Source of the DNA: Escherichia coli
GTDB lineage: Bacteria > Pseudomonadota > Gammaproteobacteria > Enterobacterales > Enterobacteriaceae
DNA: 64,000 bases
Direction: 5' to 3' (one strand)
Assembly: GCF_003334305.1 (NCBI RefSeq)
Contig: NZ_QOWS01000016.1
Part shown: positions 5,172-50,115 of the stretch, one piece after another
How positions within the stretch are numbered: position 1 is the stretch's first letter
Layout of the letters: every line of letters starts with the position of its first letter
Translations under genes and position numbers: made by a program
Notes under the pieces: generated by a model
Seen by the model: only the letters and a program-made list of their open reading frames with translations
Database searches by the model: none
Told to the model about the DNA's origin: nothing

Positions 5172-5259
5172 GTTCACTGCCGTACAGGCAGCTTAGAAAT
5201 CGACGGGGTGCGGTAAAACCTTTGCGAACGCGTTCACTGCCGTACAGACAGATAAAATG
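5172..5259 (+). CRISPR. Orphan type I-F CRISPR remnant: 2 repeats flanking one 32-nt spacer, no cas genes in window
   Basis: Repeat 1 5172-5199 GTTCACTGCCGTACAGGCAGCTTAGAAA (canonical I-F repeat); spacer 5200-5231; repeat 2 5232-5259 GTTCACTGCCGTACAGACAGATAAAATG (22/28 identical, degenerate terminal repeat). Confidence 0.85.
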
Positions 5260-5302: not shown

Positions 5303-5390
5303 TGGCGGTGAGGGGGGGATTCGAACCCCCGATACGTTGCCGTATACACACTTTCCAGGCGTGCTCCTTCAGCCACTCGGACACCTCACC
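5303..5390 (-). tRNA. serW: tRNA-Ser (anticodon GGA), CCA encoded
   Basis: Minus-strand read GGTGAGGTGTCCGAGTGGCTGAAGGAGCACGCCTGGAAAGTG…GGTTCGAATCCCCCCCTCACCGCCA; long variable arm typical of tRNA-Ser. Confidence 0.95.
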
Positions 5391-20213: not shown

Positions 20214-20237
20214 TACCCAATTTTTCTGAATCTAAAA

Positions 20238-20260
20238 AGCGCCTGCGGGCGCTTTTTTTG
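20238..20260 (+). terminator. Rho-independent terminator of serS
   Basis: AGCGCC-TGCG-GGCGCT hairpin followed by TTTTTTTG. Confidence 0.8.
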
Positions 20261-20267
20261 TCTCCCT

Positions 20268-20281
20268 TTGATACCGAACAA
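20268..20281. promoter_or_regulatory. Candidate FNR site in dmsA promoter
   Basis: TTGATaccgAACAA matches TTGAT-N4-ATCAA at 9/10 positions, about 170 bp upstream of the dmsA ATG. Confidence 0.5.
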
Positions 20282-20451
20282 TAATTACTCCTCACTTACA
20301 CGTAATACTACTTTCGAGTGAAAATCTACCTATCTCTTTGATTTTCAAATTATTCGATGTATACAAGCCTATATAGCGAACTGCTATAGAAATAATTACA
20401 CAATACGGTTTGTTACTGGAATCAATCGTGAGCAAGCTTGAGTGAGCCATT

Positions 20452-43813: not shown

Positions 43814-46078
43814 ATGAAAATAACGACAGTCGGCGTATGCATAATTTGCGGAATTTTTCCGTTGCTGATTTTGCCCCAATTGCCTGGGACATTAACCCTT
43901 GCGTTTCTGACTCTCTTCGCCTGCGTACTGGCATTTATCCCTGTTAAAACCGTCCGTTATATCGCGCTGACGTTGCTGTTTTTCGTTTGGGGCATATTAT
44001 CAGCAAAGCAAATTTTGTGGGCAGGAGAAACCTTAACTGGCGCGACGCAGGATGCAATTGTTGAGATCACTGCAACTGACGGCATGACCACTCATTACGG
44101 TCAAATTACTCATCTACAAGGTCGACGTATATTCCCTGCGCCAGGCCTTGTGCTGTATGGCGAATATCTTCCGCAAGCGGTTTGTGCTGGACAACAATGG
44201 TCAATGAAACTCAAAGTTCGTGCGGTTCATGGCCAACTTAATGATGGCGGCTTTGATAGCCAGCGTTATGCCATTGCCCAGCATCAACCGCTCACCGGCC
44301 GCTTTCTGCAGGCAAGTGTTATTGAACCGAATTGTAGCCTGCGTGCACAGTATCTGGCGTCACTACAAACAACGCTGCAACCCTATCCGTGGAATGCGGT
44401 TATTCTTGGTTTAGGTATGGGGGAACGGTTATCCGTCCCCAAAGAAATCAAAAATATCATGCGCGATACTGGAACGGCGCATTTAATGGCGATATCGGGA
44501 TTGCACATCGCTTTTGCGGCGTTGCTGGCTGCCGGACTCATTCGCAGTGGACAAATTTTTCTGCCTGGGCGCTGGATCCACTGGCAAATACCATTAATTG
44601 GTGGGATCTGCTGTGCTGCTTTTTATGCCTGGTTGACGGGAATGCAACCTCCTGCATTGCGTACCGTGGTGGCGCTTGCTACGTGGGGAATGCTTAAGTT
44701 AAGTGGGCGACAGTGGAGTGGCTGGGATGTATGGATATGTTGTCTGGCGGCAATTTTGCTGATGGATCCTGTTGCCATTCTCTCGCAAAGTTTATGGCTC
44801 TCTGCCGCTGCGGTCGCGGCACTGATTTTTTGGTACCAGTGGTTTCCCTGTCCTGAGTGGCAACTGCCGCCGGTATTGCGTGCAGTTGTTTCCCTCATTC
44901 ATTTGCAACTGGGAATCACACTCCTGCTTATGCCTGTGCAAATCGTCATATTTCATGGCATTAGTCTGACCTCGTTTATTGCAAATCTATTAGCAATTCC
45001 CTTGGTGACATTTATCACGGTTCCGTTGATCCTCGCCGCGATGGTTGTGCATTTAAGCGGGCCGTTAATCCTGGAGCAAGGGTTATGGTTTCTTGCCGAC
45101 CGGTCTTTGGCTTTACTTTTCTGGGGGTTAAAGAGTTTGCCAGAAGGGTGGATCAACATTGCTGAACGTTGGCAATGGCTATCATTTTCCCCATGGTTCT
45201 TACTGGTGGTATGGCGATTAAACGCCTGGCGAACGTTGCCAGCAATGTGTGTGGCTGTAGGCTTGCTGATGTGCTGGCCGCTGTGGCAAAAACCTCGACC
45301 TGACGAGTGGCAGGTGTACATGCTTGATGTCGGGCAAGGGCTGGCAATGGTGATAGCCAGAAACGGCAAAGCGATTCTCTATGACACAGGACTGGCCTGG
45401 CCCGAAGGGGATAGTGGGCAACAACTGATTATCCCCTGGCTCCACTGGCATAATCTTGAACCGGAAGGCGTTATTCTGAGTCATGAACATCTGGATCACC
45501 GGGGAGGGCTGGACTCAATATTGCACACATGGCCGATGTTATGGATCAGAAGTCCGTTAAACTGGGAACATCATCAGCCCTGTGTGCGTGGCGAAGCGTG
45601 GCAATGGCAAGGATTGCGTTTCAGCGTGCACTGGCCTTTACAAGCTAGCAACGATAAAGGAAATAACCATTCCTGTGTGGTTAAGGTTGATGACGGGACG
45701 AATAGCATTCTTCTAACCGGTGATATTGAAGTCCCCGCTGAACAAAAGATGCTAAGCCGTTACTGGCAGCAAGTGCAGACAACATTGCTTCAGGTACCTC
45801 ACCATGGCAGTAATACCTCATCATCGTTGCCATTAATTCAGCGAGTGAATGGAAAAGTGGCACTCGCATCGGCATCGCGCTATAACGCATGGCGATTGCC
45901 CTCTAATAAAGTTAAGCATCGCTATCAACAGCAAGGATATCAATGGCTTGATACTCCACATCAGGGTCAAGTGACGGTCAATTTTTCAGCGCAAGGCTGG
46001 CGGATTAGCAGCCTCAGAGAGCAAATTTTACCTCGTTGGTATCATCAGTGGTTTGGCGTGCCAGTGGATAACGGGTAG
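43814..46078 (+). CDS. ycaI: ycaI, ComEC/Rec2-family inner membrane protein with C-terminal metallo-beta-lactamase domain (754 aa)
   Basis: ORF track 43736..46078 trimmed to ATG 43814 (MKITTVGVCIICGIF); polytopic N-terminal region; HxHxDH motif in VILSHEHLDHRGG. Confidence 0.9.
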   Translation: MKITTVGVCIICGIFPLLILPQLPGTLTLAFLTLFACVLAFIPVKTVRYIALTLLFFVWGILSAKQILWAGETLTGATQDAIVEITATDGMTTHYGQITHLQGRRIFPAPGLVLYGEYLPQAVCAGQQWSMKLKVRAVHGQLNDGGFDSQRYAIAQHQPLTGRFLQASVIEPNCSLRAQYLASLQTTLQPYPWNAVILGLGMGERLSVPKEIKNIMRDTGTAHLMAISGLHIAFAALLAAGLIRSGQIFLPGRWIHWQIPLIGGICCAAFYAWLTGMQPPALRTVVALATWGMLKLSGRQWSGWDVWICCLAAILLMDPVAILSQSLWLSAAAVAALIFWYQWFPCPEWQLPPVLRAVVSLIHLQLGITLLLMPVQIVIFHGISLTSFIANLLAIPLVTFITVPLILAAMVVHLSGPLILEQGLWFLADRSLALLFWGLKSLPEGWINIAERWQWLSFSPWFLLVVWRLNAWRTLPAMCVAVGLLMCWPLWQKPRPDEWQVYMLDVGQGLAMVIARNGKAILYDTGLAWPEGDSGQQLIIPWLHWHNLEPEGVILSHEHLDHRGGLDSILHTWPMLWIRSPLNWEHHQPCVRGEAWQWQGLRFSVHWPLQASNDKGNNHSCVVKVDDGTNSILLTGDIEVPAEQKMLSRYWQQVQTTLLQVPHHGSNTSSSLPLIQRVNGKVALASASRYNAWRLPSNKVKHRYQQQGYQWLDTPHQGQVTVNFSAQGWRISSLREQILPRWYHQWFGVPVDNG

Positions 46079-46114
46079 AATATGCGGCTATTTCAACAAA
46101 TGCTGGTTTTTTGA

Positions 46115-47863
46115 ATGCATAACGACAAAGATCTCTCTACGTGGCAGACGTTCCGCCGACTGTGGCCAACCATTGCGCCTTTTAAAGCGGGTCTGATCGT
46201 GGCGGGCGTAGCGTTAATCCTCAACGCAGCCAGCGATACCTTCATGTTATCGCTCCTTAAGCCACTTCTTGATGATGGCTTTGGTAAAACAGATCGCTCC
46301 GTGCTGGTGTGGATGCCGCTGGTGGTGATCGGGCTGATGATTTTACGTGGTATCACCAGCTATGTCTCCAGCTACTGTATCTCCTGGGTATCAGGAAAGG
46401 TGGTAATGACCATGCGTCGCCGCCTGTTTGGTCACATGATGGGAATGCCGGTTTCATTTTTTGACAAACAGTCAACGGGGACGCTGTTGTCACGTATCAC
46501 CTACGATTCCGAACAGGTTGCTTCTTCTTCTTCCGGCGCACTGATAACGGTTGTGCGTGAAGGTGCGTCAATCATCGGCCTGTTCATCATGATGTTCTAT
46601 TACAGTTGGCAACTGTCGATCATTTTGATTGTGCTGGCACCGATTGTTTCGATTGCGATTCGCGTAGTATCGAAGCGTTTTCGCAACATCAGTAAAAACA
46701 TGCAGAACACCATGGGGCAGGTGACCACCAGCGCCGAACAAATGCTGAAGGGCCACAAAGAAGTATTGATTTTCGGTGGTCAGGAAGTGGAAACGAAACG
46801 CTTTGATAAAGTCAGCAACCGAATGCGTCTTCAGGGGATGAAAATGGTTTCAGCCTCTTCCATCTCTGATCCGATCATTCAGCTGATCGCCTCTTTGGCG
46901 CTGGCGTTTGTTCTGTATGCGGCGAGCTTCCCAAGTGTCATGGATAGCCTGACTGCCGGTACGATTACCGTTGTTTTCTCTTCAATGATTGCACTGATGC
47001 GTCCGCTGAAATCACTGACCAACGTTAACGCCCAGTTCCAGCGCGGTATGGCGGCTTGTCAGACGCTGTTTACCATTCTGGACAGTGAGCAGGAGAAAGA
47101 CGAAGGTAAGCGCGTGATCGAGCGTGCGACTGGCGACGTGGAATTCCGCAATGTCACCTTTACTTATCCGGGACGTGACGTACCTGCATTGCGTAACATC
47201 AACCTGAAAATTCCGGCAGGGAAGACGGTTGCTCTGGTTGGACGCTCTGGTTCAGGTAAATCAACCATCGCCAGCCTGATCACGCGTTTTTACGATATTG
47301 ATGAAGGCGAAATCCTGATGGATGGTCACGATCTGCGCGAGTATACCCTGGCGTCGTTACGTAACCAGGTTGCTCTGGTGTCGCAGAATGTCCATCTGTT
47401 TAACGATACGGTTGCTAACAACATTGCTTACGCACGGACTGAACAGTACAGCCGTGAGCAAATTGAAGAAGCGGCGCGTATGGCCTACGCCATGGACTTC
47501 ATCAATAAGATGGATAACGGTCTCGATACAGTGATTGGTGAAAACGGCGTGCTGCTCTCTGGCGGTCAGCGTCAGCGTATTGCTATCGCTCGAGCCTTGT
47601 TGCGTGATAGCCCGATTCTGATTCTGGACGAAGCTACCTCGGCTCTGGATACCGAATCCGAACGTGCGATTCAGGCGGCACTGGATGAGTTGCAGAAAAA
47701 CCGTACCTCTCTGGTGATTGCCCACCGCTTGTCTACCATTGAAAAGGCAGACGAAATCGTGGTCGTCGAGGATGGTGTCATTGTGGAACGCGGTACGCAT
47801 AACGATTTGCTTGAGCACCGCGGCGTTTACGCGCAACTTCACAAAATGCAGTTTGGCCAATGA
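46115..47863 (+). CDS. msbA: msbA, lipid A/LPS flippase ABC transporter (582 aa)
   Basis: 6-TM domain plus ABC ATPase ([17 protein letters not shown]). Confidence 0.96.
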
Positions 47864-48846
47864 TCGAAAAAATCTGGTCTGGTGAATCCCCTTTGTGGCG
47901 GCTATTGCTGCCACTCTCCTGGTTGTATGGCCTGGTGAGTGGCGCGATCCGTCTTTGCTATAAACTAAAACTGAAGCGCGCCTGGCGTGCCCCCGTACCG
48001 GTTGTCGTGGTTGGTAATCTCACCGCAGGCGGCAACGGAAAAACCCCGGTCGTTGTCTGGCTGGTGGAACAGTTGCAACAGCGCGGTATTCGCGTGGGGG
48101 TCGTATCGCGGGGATATGGTGGTAAGGCTGAATCTTATCCGCTGTTATTGTCGGCAGATACCACAACAGCACAGGCGGGTGATGAACCTGTGTTGATTTA
48201 TCAACGCACTGATGCGCCTGTTGCGGTTTCTCCCGTTCGTTCTGATGCGGTAAAAGCCATTCTGGCGCAACACCCTGATGTGCAGATCATCGTAACCGAC
48301 GACGGTTTACAGCATTACCGTCTGGCGCGTGATGTGGAAATTGTCGTTATTGATGGTGTGCGTCGCTTTGGCAATGGCTGGTGGTTGCCGGCGGGGCCAA
48401 TGCGTGAGCGAGCGGGGCGCTTAAAGTCGGTTGATGCGGTAATCGTCAACGGTGGTGTCCCTCGCAGCGGTGAAATCCCCATGCATCTGCTGCCGGGTCA
48501 GGCGGTGAATTTACGTACCGGTACGCGTTGTGACGTTGCTCAGCTTGAACATGTAGTGGCGATGGCGGGGATTGGGCATCCGCCGCGCTTTTTTGCCACG
48601 CTGAAGATGTGTGGCGTACAACCGGAAAAATGTGTACCGCTGGCCGATCATCAGTCTTTGAACCATGCGGATGTCAGTGCGTTGGTAAGCGCCGGGCAAA
48701 CGCTGGTAATGACTGAAAAAGATGCGGTGAAATGCCGGGCCTTTGCAGAAGAAAATTGGTGGTATTTGCCTGTAGACGCACAGCTTTCAGGTGATGAACC
48801 AGCGAAACTGCTTACGCAACTAACCTCGCTGGCTTCTGGCAACTAG
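47860..48846 (+). CDS. lpxK: lpxK, tetraacyldisaccharide 4'-kinase (328 aa)
   Basis: ATGA overlap with msbA stop; P-loop [12 protein letters not shown]. Confidence 0.95.
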
Positions 48847-48882: not shown

Positions 48883-50115
48883 ATGTCGCTGCCGCACCTC
48901 TCCCTTGCTGATGCGCGTAATCTTCACCTTGCCGCACAAGGCCTGTTAAACAAACCCCGCCGTCAAGCGTCGTTGGAGGATATTCCGGCAACGATCTCCC
49001 GCATGTCCTTGCTGCAAATCGATACCATCAATATTGTTGCCCGTAGTCCATATCTGGTGCTTTTCAGTCGTCTGGGAAATTATCCTGCCCAGTGGCTGGA
49101 TGAGTCTCTGGCGCGTGGCGAATTAATGGAATACTGGGCGCATGAAGCCTGCTTTATGCCGCGTAGCGACTTTCGTCTTATTCGCCACCGCATGCTGGCA
49201 CCTGAAAAAATGGGCTGGAAATACAAAGACGCCTGGATGCAGGAACATGAGGCGGAAATTGCACAGTTAATTCAGCATATTCATGATAAGGGGCCGGTAC
49301 GTTCAGCCGATTTTGAGCATCCTCGTAAAGGTGCAAGCGGCTGGTGGGAATGGAAGCCGCATAAACGGCATCTGGAAGGTTTATTTACTGCCGGAAAGGT
49401 GATGGTGATTGAACGGCGCAACTTCCAGCGCGTTTATGATTTAACCCACCGTGTCATGCCTGACTGGGATGATGAGCGCGATCTCGTTTCGCAAACAGAA
49501 GCAGAAATCATCATGCTGGATAACAGTGCGCGTAGCCTGGGAATATTCCGCGAACAGTGGCTGGCAGATTACTATCGGCTGAAACGTCCGGCACTGGCGG
49601 CGTGGCGCGAAGCGAGGGCTGAACAGCAGCAAATCATTGCTGTGCATGTTGAAAAATTGGGCAATCTTTGGCTGCATGCTGATTTGCTGCCGCTACTCGA
49701 GCGTGCGCTGGCCGGAAAGCTCACTGCAACGCACAGCGCGGTACTTTCGCCTTTTGATCCTGTTGTCTGGGATCGCAAACGCGCAGAGCAGCTTTTTGAT
49801 TTTAGCTACCGGCTGGAGTGCTATACCCCAGCGCCGAAACGCCAGTATGGCTATTTTGTTCTGCCATTATTACATCGTGGGCAATTAGTTGGGCGAATGG
49901 ATGCCAAAATGCATCGCCAGACAGGCATCCTTGAAGTTATCTCTCTGTGGTTACAGGAAGGCATTAAACCAACGACAATGCTGCAAAAAGGGTTACGTCA
50001 GGCGATTACTGATTTCGCGAGCTGGCAGCAGGCAACGCGGGTGACATTAGGACGCTGCCCGCAAGGTCTCTTTACTGATTGCCGCACTGGCTGGGAAATA
50101 GACCCCGTCGCATAA
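48883..50115 (+). CDS. ycaQ: ycaQ, winged-helix (HTH_42 / AlkZ-like) DNA glycosylase family protein (410 aa)
   Basis: Protein MSLPHLSLADARNLHLAAQGLLNKPRRQASLEDIPATISRMSLLQIDTINIVARSPYLVLFSRLG recognisable as E. coli YcaQ. Confidence 0.9.
   Translation: MSLPHLSLADARNLHLAAQGLLNKPRRQASLEDIPATISRMSLLQIDTINIVARSPYLVLFSRLGNYPAQWLDESLARGELMEYWAHEACFMPRSDFRLIRHRMLAPEKMGWKYKDAWMQEHEAEIAQLIQHIHDKGPVRSADFEHPRKGASGWWEWKPHKRHLEGLFTAGKVMVIERRNFQRVYDLTHRVMPDWDDERDLVSQTEAEIIMLDNSARSLGIFREQWLADYYRLKRPALAAWREARAEQQQIIAVHVEKLGNLWLHADLLPLLERALAGKLTATHSAVLSPFDPVVWDRKRAEQLFDFSYRLECYTPAPKRQYGYFVLPLLHRGQLVGRMDAKMHRQTGILEVISLWLQEGIKPTTMLQKGLRQAITDFASWQQATRVTLGRCPQGLFTDCRTGWEIDPVA

Follow-up and report, generated by a model that had tools for sequence, protein, structure and literature searches.

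A full-length ComEC/Rec2 orthologue, ycaI, and its conserved flanking DNA elements between ihfB and msbA of Escherichia coli

The window analysed here, i.e., a stretch of 64,000 nucleotides of E. coli DNA, holds the gene ycaI within the following arrangement:

43323..43607, + strand: ihfB coding sequence, the upstream neighbour (open reading frame; RefSeq annotation of identical or orthologous loci)
43630..43658, + strand: intrinsic terminator of ihfB, with a stem of 13 pairs and a T run behind it (terminator scan)
43814..46078, + strand: ycaI coding sequence, ComEC/Rec2 family protein, 754 aa (open reading frame, family models, RefSeq)
46115..47863, + strand: msbA coding sequence, lipid A flippase, the downstream neighbour (open reading frame; RefSeq)
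47860..48846, + strand: lpxK coding sequence, with a 4-bp overlap with msbA (open reading frame; RefSeq)
48883..50115, + strand: ycaQ coding sequence (open reading frame; RefSeq)

The ycaI reading frame runs from the ATG at 43814 to the TAG at 46076-46078 and comprises 2265 nt. The ATG is preceded by a strong ribosome-binding site with the Shine-Dalgarno (SD) sequence GGGAGGGG at 43803-43810, and the length of 754 aa is common to the RefSeq annotation and to orthologues across the Enterobacteriaceae; on these two grounds the GTG at 43736, listed as an upstream start by the reading frame program, was ruled out. Next to the ycaI stop, a gap of exactly 36 bp (46079-46114) leads to the msbA ATG at 46115, and hence both the position of ycaI between ihfB and the lipid A genes and its distance to msbA, as given in an earlier note on this DNA, are exact. 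The stem and T run of the ihfB terminator are kept in 7 genera, and the terminator isolates ycaI from ihfB transcription.

The gene was identified as the full-length, intact ComEC/Rec2 orthologue of E. coli, whereby NCBIfam, Pfam, solved structures and the AlphaFold model agree. The NCBIfam equivalog NF008580 matches residues 1-754 with 1319.5 bits as compared to a cut-off of 969, a score which, for the sequence as given, is not that of a chance match to the family, and TIGR00361 (ComEC_Rec2) aligns from end to end, its positions 1-663 of 663 falling on residues 65-718, with 1111.5 bits against a cut-off of 190. This identification is correct but ordinary, as it was already known: complete E. 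coli genomes carry the RefSeq name "ycaI: ComEC family protein", and the early competence-gene surveys of Claverys and Martin (2003) and of Cameron and Redfield (2006) reportedly listed ycaI as the E. coli ComEC/Rec2 homologue.

Along the protein, four regions were assigned:

43820..44032, + strand: three N-terminal transmembrane helices, approximately residues 3-73 (hydropathy, AlphaFold)
44045..44326, + strand: OB-fold domain, approximately residues 78-171, with the conserved loop and helix LNDGGFDSQRY (142-152) (Pfam, 9vc9, model)
44414..45214, + strand: channel domain, Competence (PF03772), residues 201-467; contains the invariant stretch GTAHLMAISGLH (220-231) (Pfam, conservation)
45326..45871, + strand: metallo-beta-lactamase (MBL) nuclease domain, residues 505-686, with five metal-ligand motifs (Pfam, conservation, fold match)

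The N-terminal hydropathy peaks (residues 3-21, 26-44 and 50-68) coincide largely with the helices of the AlphaFold model (3-18, 26-40 and 45-73) and are followed by at least seven further hydrophobic segments. Three membrane helices ahead of the OB fold were likewise reported for full-length ComEC, in work describing its architecture and nuclease activity (bioRxiv 10.64898/2026.04.23.720307). The OB fold is matched weakly by Pfam DUF4131 (residues 27-157, E 1.3e-4) and more clearly by the Rec2 structure 9vc9 (E 3.7e-9 for this part); the model forms a five-strand barrel at 78-171 plus a helix at 149-155, and N143 is invariant across 55 diverse relatives. For the channel domain the Competence match is strong (E 4e-53), the model possesses a helical bundle at residues 176-491, and the 55 relatives all share H223, I227, S228, G229 and H231. 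With Lactamase_B (E 9e-23) covering the C-terminal domain, all three Pfam domains named in the earlier note as a check on ComEC homology were found, and its description of a 754-aa protein with a polytopic N-terminal part and a C-terminal MBL domain is borne out by Pfam, hydropathy and AlphaFold. The solved Rec2/ComEC chains 9vc9, 9vcb and 9vcf match YcaI residues 106-747 with E 1e-75 to 1e-78, and the AlphaFold model (mean pLDDT 91.8, pTM 0.88) places a beta-barrel and a helical bundle between the three N-terminal helices and the MBL domain. Its best PDB fold match (Foldseek) is the ComEC beta-lactamase-like domain 9ic4, with a target-normalised TM-score of 0.81 and an rmsd of 2.7 A, a match covering the nuclease domain alone. 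ComEC/Rec2 homology is thereby supported by family models, solved structures, predicted fold and residue conservation alike.

The stretch SHEHLDHRGG, reported earlier as an intact HxHxDH motif, indeed locates to residues 556-565 (HEHLDH: 557-562, nt 45482-45499), and it is accompanied by the complete set of metal-ligand motifs: I with D505 (DVGQG), II with H557, H559, D561 and H562, III with N617 (NNHS), IV with D637 (TGD) and V with H663/H664 (PHHGS). All five motifs are invariant in 14 Enterobacteriaceae, and D505, H557, D561, H562, N617, D637, H663 and H664 are so among the 55 diverse relatives; a loss of catalytic residues, which had been named as evidence against homology, was thus not seen on alignment. 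The typical ComEC motif II is HxDxDH (PMC8579336), and among the 149 closest cluster representatives this form was found in 107/149 and HxHxDH in 27/149. HxHxDH is the canonical MBL motif, untypical of ComEC, and constitutes a lineage variant of the Enterobacterales which keeps a metal-ligating residue at this position. In characterised ComEC proteins, mutation of the motif II aspartates was reported to abolish nuclease activity and to impair transformation (PMC8579336). As YcaI possesses histidine instead of aspartate at the third position of motif II when compared to the assayed ComEC proteins, its metal preference and activity could differ, and the Enterobacterales HxHxDH next to HxDxDH offers a natural variant for probing what sets the metal preference of the ComEC nuclease.

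All complete E. coli genomes (5426/5426) carry the gene, 5424 of them with a coverage of 80% or more. Its dN/dS amounts to 0.13-0.25 and that of msbA to 0-0.02; judged by these rates, ycaI is under purifying selection which is relaxed compared with msbA. YcaI identity between E. coli and Klebsiella is only about 62%; orthologues of 754 aa were found throughout the Enterobacteriaceae, almost all of 105 species loci hold an intact copy, and the gene order cmk-rpsA-ihfB-comEC-msbA-lpxK together with the exact 36-bp junction is kept across the Enterobacterales. Occasional natural disruptions were observed, i.e., a frameshift (locus L005) and a prophage-like insertion (locus L006). Three species loci (L048, L065, L073) gave multi-frame tblastn matches, which may be pseudogenes or long-read assembly errors.

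Upstream of ycaI, three elements came to attention:

43676..43692, + strand: conserved upstream motif CTGGAAGCTGCCTCGCA (CTGGAA-N6-TCGCA) (pattern search, positional conservation)
43763..43791, + strand: candidate ycaI core promoter, CAGACA at 43763-43768, 17-bp spacer, CACACT at 43786-43791 (conservation)
43784..43814, + strand: predicted stem-loop, its 3' arm holding the SD sequence and the first start-codon base (folding, conservation)

Within the first element, TGGAAGCTGCCTCGCA at 43677-43692 resembles CRP-S, the Sxy-dependent type of CRP site (TGCGA-N6-TCGCA), whereby the right half is perfect, the left half imperfect and the mismatches are two in all. CTGGAA-N6-TCGCA occurs in 22/55 distinct Enterobacteriaceae upstream regions, and in 7 genera its TCGCA keeps a fixed place, 124-126 nt upstream of the ATG. 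A CRP-S pattern search over the window gave 40 matches with 44.5 expected, i.e., no excess above chance, and what speaks for the upstream site is therefore solely its positional conservation. Its centre lies about 113 nt from the predicted ycaI start, a non-standard position for CRP activation, and in the literature searched, to which the key Sxy-regulon study did not belong, no statement on Sxy induction of ycaI was found. A sigma-54 reading of the same motif, for which the GG-N10-GC spacing fits, was dropped, as A consistently stands in place of the conserved C of TGGCA; furthermore, the -12 element reads TCGCA and a known activator link is lacking.

The candidate ycaI promoter, from which transcription is predicted to begin near 43798, surfaced from conservation alone, since a generic sigma-70 scan from ihfB to ycaI returned no 9-of-12 promoter. 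All of the 56 sequences compared carry the A, A, C and T of the second hexamer, 44-49 of them have the G, A and C of the first, and the spacer is constant in length with an unconserved sequence. The stem-loop was predicted at -14.4 kcal/mol (z = -3.8), and the mean MFE among 51 sequences is -13.3 kcal/mol versus -7.1 for shuffled ones. Its consensus structure is valid in 7 genera with one compensatory pair; one pair reads C-G in 29, U-A in 9 and U.G in 7 of these 51 sequences, the other 6 being non-pairs. Because the -10-like hexamer falls on the 5' arm, the promoter and hairpin readings compete. Taken together, the conserved elements 5' of ycaI point to a weak promoter and to a hairpin masking the ribosome-binding site, and as such they provide a concrete candidate reason for the laboratory silence of the E. 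coli DNA-uptake channel. An Rfam scan of 43550-46250 at a permissive E-value returned nothing relevant, and thus neither this conserved block nor the one at the 3' end of the gene is explained by a known RNA family.

At the ycaI-msbA junction, conservation takes a different form:

46034..46114, + strand: nucleotide-invariant block comprising the last approximately 15 ycaI codons, the stop and the 36-bp gap; candidate msbA promoter and leader (scan, conservation)
46082..46114, + strand: upstream reading frame of 10 codons, MRLFQQMLVF, its TGA stop directly abutting the msbA ATG (sequence reading)

The block shows 90% mean identity across 7 genera, whereby third-codon-position identity rises from about 0.40 elsewhere in ycaI to 0.76-0.94, and identity within the gap reaches 0.96. 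It contains a sigma-70-like match, with the -35 hexamer TTGGCG at 46053-46058, a 17-bp spacer and the -10 hexamer TAGAAT at 46076-46081, of which TAG is the ycaI stop. Among 101 distinct sequences of the block, variation is confined to 8 nt of the spacer, and the match recurs in other families of the Enterobacterales, where Providencia and Rouxiella-like loci keep both hexamers and the 36-bp gap, including cases in which a TAA stop yields TAAAAT. Both predicted promoters, i.e., that of ycaI and that of msbA, are to be read as consensus matches backed by conservation alone and not as mapped starts. The short upstream reading frame is open in 7 genera; it was rejected as a conserved leader peptide, because every substitution in it is non-synonymous and because the msbA transcript is predicted to start, near 46088, only downstream of its ATG. 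Since it is situated mostly upstream of this start, it probably encodes no conserved peptide.

From the 36-bp gap, the earlier note had suggested co-transcription of ycaI with the essential lipid A genes. The genes ycaI, msbA, lpxK and ycaQ follow each other on the same strand with gaps of 36, -4 and 36 bp and are listed as one operon (PMC10328246), and between 46000 and 46115 no terminator-like site was found, so that read-through from ycaI into msbA is possible. An operon whose downstream genes are devoid of a promoter of their own is, in contrast, not what was found, as the predicted TTGGCG-17-TAGAAT at 46053-46081 is conserved. This embedded, invariant promoter match renders the 36-bp gap poor evidence of obligate co-transcription. 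Hence, the suggestion stands as far as read-through is concerned and is weakened as regards obligate linkage: co-transcription of msbA with ycaI is, judging from the sequence, possible and probably not required. [quoted passage not shown] Besides strand, gap and the missing terminator, the operon entry of the four genes in literature and databases and polar effects of CRISPRi within the operon (PMC10328246, PMC3001078) would agree with this, and, as msbA is without an obvious SD sequence, a short reading frame ending at its ATG would suit translational coupling. However, the non-synonymous nature of all substitutions in that frame speaks against this alternative, and the block has the anatomy of a promoter, i.e., an invariant TTGGCG, a 17-bp spacer with only its first 8 nt free to vary, and an invariant TA(G/A)AAT. 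Moreover, the cell requires the essential msbA at all times, whereas expression of ComEC genes is as a rule confined to competence (bioRxiv 10.64898/2026.04.23.720307), and a kanamycin cassette within ycaI is tolerated (PMC8151780). Exclusive transcription from the ycaI promoter is thus regarded as unlikely, albeit as the strongest of the alternatives.

The account considered likely describes YcaI as a ComEC/Rec2 DNA channel-nuclease of low, conditional expression, with msbA-lpxK served by an embedded promoter. It starts from what was observed, namely gene identity, protein architecture, residue conservation, selection, synteny and the conservation of the DNA elements. By analogy with the solved and assayed ComEC proteins, we infer for YcaI nuclease and channel activity; the regulation and the transcription start sites are predictions as well. 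YcaI would accordingly reside in the inner membrane, with a periplasmic OB fold and MBL domain over a helical channel. The nuclease domain would degrade one strand of the incoming duplex DNA, a type of function demonstrated with ComEC of Moorella and B. subtilis (PMC8579336), while the other strand would pass through the Competence-domain channel to the cytoplasm. As the protein is intact and under selection, it is most likely still functional, and its job would be retained and exercised when the Sxy/CRP competence regulon is on. In this context, sxy expression was reported to result in natural DNA uptake by E. coli (PMC3330819, in the text of which ycaI is absent), and a passage of PMC1635313 describes gamma-proteobacteria as conserving competence homologues including rec2. 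Ordinary growth and plasmid transformation on agar plates would proceed without ycaI, in line, for the latter, with 2009 work as relayed in passages of PMC6135910 and PMC3306417. Expression of ycaI is probably low and conditional, given the weak conserved promoter and a ribosome-binding site that can be buried in the conserved hairpin. In turn, msbA and lpxK are most likely independent of ycaI transcription owing to the promoter in its last approximately 45 nt, overlapping the stop, to whose output ycaI read-through may add. A ycaI deletion which takes these last nucleotides would likely harm the expression of the essential msbA-lpxK pair, and published ycaI mutant phenotypes therefore deserve scrutiny for polar effects.

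A different idea is that YcaI was repurposed and acts mainly as a phosphodiesterase or nuclease of the periplasm, serving nutrient scavenging or envelope-related chemistry instead of transformation, its linkage to msbA-lpxK reflecting a shared envelope role. The gene order and junction conserved across the Enterobacterales would fit this idea, as would a motif II reverted to the canonical Zn-type HxHxDH of Pce/CbpE, the nearest non-ComEC structural relative. The Competence domain and OB fold are, however, conserved as strongly as the nuclease domain, which a soluble enzyme would not explain, and the embedded msbA promoter accounts for the linkage more simply; to our knowledge, no biochemical link of YcaI to lipid A exists, which counts against the idea as well. 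For a ycaI nonsense mutant, a 2026 study reported that chemical and ultrasound transformation was less efficient and that permeability read-outs were altered (PMC12844161), which would also fit, but the effects are small and may include polar ones on msbA. Repurposing is accordingly held to be improbable. Less probable still is that ycaI is a decaying relic without DNA import, surviving by slow neutral loss and its 3' msbA-lpxK promoter: natural transformability of E. coli without engineering was never shown (PMC3330819), growth and plasmid transformation do without the gene, its selection is relaxed relative to its neighbours and the promoter constrains its final approximately 45 nt, but this constraint spans only about 15 codons, while 5424/5426 E. 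coli genomes and almost every one of the 105 Enterobacteriaceae species keep the other approximately 740 open, dN/dS is far below neutrality, and metal ligands and channel signature residues are invariant across genera with saturated synonymous sites.

Returning to the channel-nuclease account, a more specific joint reading is put forward tentatively and with rather more doubt than confidence: the msbA-lpxK promoter would lie inside the ycaI end, ycaI would be kept near-silent by its weak conserved promoter, with the -10-like hexamer doubling as the anti-SD arm of the hairpin, and the Asp-to-His switch may alter metal use. None of these three elements, i.e., the embedded msbA promoter, the -10/anti-SD hairpin and the Asp-to-His switch of the Enterobacterales, was found described in the literature searched.

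Compared with known systems, the assayed and solved ComEC proteins of Bacillus subtilis and Moorella/Neomoorella (PDB 9ic4, 30bt/30bu) possess OB fold, Competence channel and MBL domain as well as all five metal-ligand motifs, as does YcaI. The nuclease domains share about 26% identity and differ in motif II, being HEHLDH in YcaI and H-x-D-x-D-H (THPDADH, HADQDH-type) in the former. MBL fold and HxHxDH are in turn shared with Pce/CbpE, the pneumococcal phosphorylcholine esterase, and with the MBL-fold phosphodiesterases and nucleases RNase J and CPSF73; these are, however, soluble, without the OB fold and membrane channel of YcaI, at an identity of 12-16%. The closest solved relatives are the gamma-proteobacterial Rec2/ComEC proteins, i.e., Haemophilus influenzae Rec2 and Vibrio cholerae ComEC (9vc9, 9vcb, 9vcf), with which YcaI has the family model TIGR00361 in common and aligns up to and including the C-terminal WY motif. 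Motif II of the deposited structures reads HxAxAH, presumably owing to engineered Asp-to-Ala variants of HxDxDH. In both species, rec2/comEC presumably also adjoins msbA-lpxK. These species are naturally transformable with rec2 under a defined CRP-S/Sxy promoter, whereas E. coli ycaI has only the imperfect CRP-S-like site. The annotated K-12 ycaI (b0913, WP_000705764.1; NF008580, PRK11539) is the same gene with the same length and the same neighbours; the sequence in the window, 100% identical to that of several sequenced strains, shares 98.1% DNA identity with the K-12 allele (dN about 0.009), the differences being allelic only.

The finding at ycaI, which the earlier note had described as a ComEC/Rec2-like DNA-uptake channel homolog between ihfB and msbA, is real and was rightly read, whereby ycaI as a ComEC family gene already has its annotation and has been treated in published work. 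What is added here is modest, namely a predicted msbA promoter embedded in ycaI, a possible hairpin sequestering the ycaI Shine-Dalgarno (SD) sequence and an order-wide variant of motif II, the second of five metal-ligand motifs of the metallo-beta-lactamase (MBL) domain. The place and length of the reading frame and the 36-bp gap to msbA were found as claimed:

43323-43607, plus strand: ihfB, upstream neighbour of ycaI, preceded by rpsA
43803-43810, plus strand: ycaI SD sequence GGGAGGGG, preceding ATG 43814
43814-46078, plus strand: ycaI coding sequence, ATG 43814, TAG 46076-46078, 754 aa
46115-47863, plus strand: msbA, downstream neighbour of ycaI, ATG 46115
47860-48846, plus strand: lpxK, after msbA
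48883-50115, plus strand: ycaQ, after lpxK

An extension to GTG 43736, given by the ORF lister, was rejected as ycaI start, the 754-aa form being common to the RefSeq annotation and to orthologues from many genera. Several sequenced E. coli strains match the ycaI stretch with 100% identity, and all of the 5426 complete E. coli genomes carry the gene, for which the annotation reads "ycaI: ComEC family protein". Further downstream, lpxK begins within the last 4 bp of msbA (47860-47863, ATGA-type junction). An identical overlap occurs in loci of Klebsiella and Providencia and in Rouxiella-like ones, and it fits with a translational coupling of these two essential genes.

ComEC homology was upheld at the levels of family, domain and fold. 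The NCBIfam equivalog NF008580 matches YcaI end to end (1319 bits, cut-off 969), TIGR00361 ComEC_Rec2 scores 1111 bits (cut-off 190), and all three domains that the earlier note had proposed to search for were matched by Pfam:

Residues 27-157: DUF4131, weak match
Residues 201-467: Competence, E 4e-53
Residues 505-686: Lactamase_B, E 9e-23

Solved Rec2/ComEC chains (9vc9, 9vcb, 9vcf) align with residues 106-747 at E 1e-75 to 1e-78, the OB-fold part by itself matching 9vc9 at E 3.7e-9. An AlphaFold model, calculated with an alignment of 55 diverse relatives as input, is confident (pLDDT 91.8, pTM 0.88) and comprises, in this order, three helices at the N-terminus, a barrel of five strands (78-171), a bundle of helices (176-491) and the MBL domain (499-733). 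When this model was used for a fold search, the ComEC beta-lactamase-like domain 9ic4 was the top match, followed by the pneumococcal esterase Pce/CbpE, which is given as a structural neighbour in the literature (PMC8579336).

Within E. coli, dN/dS amounts to 0.13-0.25 for ycaI and to 0-0.02 for msbA, hence ycaI is under clear, though relaxed, purifying selection. The protein evolves fast (~62% identity to Klebsiella) yet its length is kept, and the frame is open in nearly all whole-gene loci among 105 Enterobacteriaceae species loci. Disruptions are rare in the sampled E. coli, with one gene frameshifted and one split by prophage-like DNA; together these properties make ycaI unlike a relic. 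In the frameshifted copy (locus L005, 2301-4560, NZ_OY754357.1), 5 bp are deleted and the annotation records the frameshift; the split copy (locus L006, 4001-9185, E. coli 90-3040, NZ_CP027459.1) is interrupted after about nt 1185-1224 by an insert with Com-family regulator and cytosine methyltransferase genes.

Between ihfB and ycaI the following elements were identified:

43630-43658, plus strand: ihfB terminator, strong and conserved
43676-43692, plus strand: CTGGAA-N6-TCGCA, its right half a perfect half-site of CRP-S, the Sxy-dependent type of CRP site
43763-43768 and 43786-43791, plus strand: candidate weak ycaI promoter, CAGACA, 17 bp, CACACT
43784-43814, plus strand: predicted hairpin pairing with the ycaI SD sequence, -14.4 kcal/mol, z -3.8

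The element nnGACA-17 bp-(C/G)A(C/T)ACT is positionally conserved in otherwise diverged DNA, four positions of its second hexamer being invariant in 56 sequences and its spacer unconserved; it resembles a weak promoter, transcription from which would start near 43798. Its second hexamer also forms the 5' arm (anti-SD) of the hairpin, for which one covarying pair was observed in 51 sequences (C-G 29, U-A 9, U.G 7, non-pairs 6) and a mean minimum free energy of -13.3 kcal/mol was obtained as compared to -7.1 for shuffles. An SD-sequestering hairpin over the ycaI ribosome-binding site is predicted as a possibility, and the promoter and hairpin readings would compete unless an additional upstream start exists. 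CTGGAA-N6-TCGCA resembles a CRP-S site that is perfect in one half and is located ~113 nt from the predicted ycaI start. Its spacing to the ATG of ycaI is constant across seven genera, and 22 out of 55 distinct upstream regions contain it; its single-site match is statistically non-significant. A weaker copy, CTGAATGTGCCTCGGG (43730-43745), lies 53 bp downstream, its centre ~61 nt before the predicted start.

Concerning the junction with msbA, the earlier note had suggested co-transcription with the lipid A genes. This stands insofar as no terminator-like site was found between ycaI and msbA, read-through from ycaI being possible, and a four-gene operon ycaI-msbA-lpxK-ycaQ is given in the literature (PMC10328246; PMC3001078); it is qualified by two further features:

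46034-46114, plus strand: near-invariant nucleotide block (last ~15 ycaI codons, stop, whole 36-bp gap) in Enterobacteriaceae, Providencia and Rouxiella-like genomes
46053-46058 and 46076-46081, plus strand: candidate msbA-lpxK promoter matching the consensus, -35 TTGGCG, 17-bp spacer, -10 TAGAAT

Across seven genera, identity at third codon positions is ~0.40 along ycaI, as against 0.76-0.94 for its last 15 codons; the 36-bp gap itself is 0.96 identical. An exact 22-mer from the junction retrieved 105 loci, all of Enterobacteriaceae, and in 101 distinct junction sequences an invariant CGnTGGTATCATCAGTGGTTTGGCG is followed by 8 free nucleotides and then by GATAACGGGTAGAAT and the leader. Invariant flanks, the free 8 nt and TTGGCG-17-TAGAAT together display promoter anatomy. 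The TAG of the -10 element is the ycaI stop codon, and hexamers and gap are kept in Providencia, a Rouxiella-like genome and one further relative, among which a TAA stop occurs, the -10 then still reading TAAAAT. Judged by this conservation, msbA-lpxK most likely possess their own promoter embedded in ycaI, which would render co-transcription with ycaI optional. Within the gap, msbA shows no obvious SD sequence, and a 10-codon upstream ORF (MRLFQQMLVF*, 46082-46114) abuts the msbA ATG with its TGA (TGAATG). This ORF is open in 7 genera; since every substitution is non-synonymous, conservation of an encoded peptide is improbable.

Elsewhere in the window, a CRISPR repeat of 28 nt (GTTCACTGCCGTACAGGCAG..., Rfam CRISPR-DR4; 5172-5259) occurs twice, 60 bp apart and hence with one spacer, next to tRNA-Ser(GGA) (5303-5390, minus strand). 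The pair looks like a vestigial CRISPR array and resembles the known E. coli remnant type I-F array between clpA and infA. Further Rfam matches are the enterobacterial sRNA STnc130 (20227-20361, minus strand; gathering-score match, 140 bits) and ES036/CssrF (63889-63932, plus strand; 38.5 bits, barely over threshold).

By homology, YcaI may act as a periplasmic nuclease and ssDNA channel; a literature search for YcaI biochemistry found no study. E. coli holds a full set of competence-gene homologues, CRP-S/Sxy control having been shown for some (PMC1635313), and plasmid-borne sxy with lambda Red recombination gave detectable natural DNA uptake in a report that does not mention ycaI (PMC3330819). 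Plasmid transformation on plates does not need ycaI, as cited in passages of PMC6135910 and PMC3306417, and in a 2026 study a ycaI nonsense mutant showed modestly reduced artificial transformation, polar msbA effects not being ruled out there (PMC12844161).

The intact HxHxDH motif claimed for YcaI (SHEHLDHRGG, residues 556-565) was confirmed, all five MBL motifs being present:

Motif I: D505 (DVGQG)
Motif II: H557, H559, D561, H562 (residues 557-562, window 45482-45499)
Motif III: N617 (NNHS)
Motif IV: D637 (TGD)
Motif V: H663/H664 (PHHGS)

They are invariant among 14 Enterobacteriaceae, and on alignment with 55 relatives, at identities down to 27%, all of them but position 559 are invariant as well. 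In characterised ComECs, this third motif II position is Asp (HxDxDH) and motif III likewise has Asn (PMC8579336). Of the 149 cluster representatives (at 50% identity) nearest to YcaI, 107 carry HxDxDH and 27 HxHxDH, a broken motif II occurring in none of the full-length members; carriers of HxHxDH include Cedecea, Mangrovibacter, Rouxiella, Tatumella, Budvicia and Providencia and are hence spread across Enterobacterales. The modelled layout of YcaI corresponds to that described for full-length ComEC (bioRxiv 10.64898/2026.04.23.720307). In motif II, YcaI and other Enterobacterales proteins, with HxHxDH, differ from most other ComEC proteins, which possess HxDxDH.
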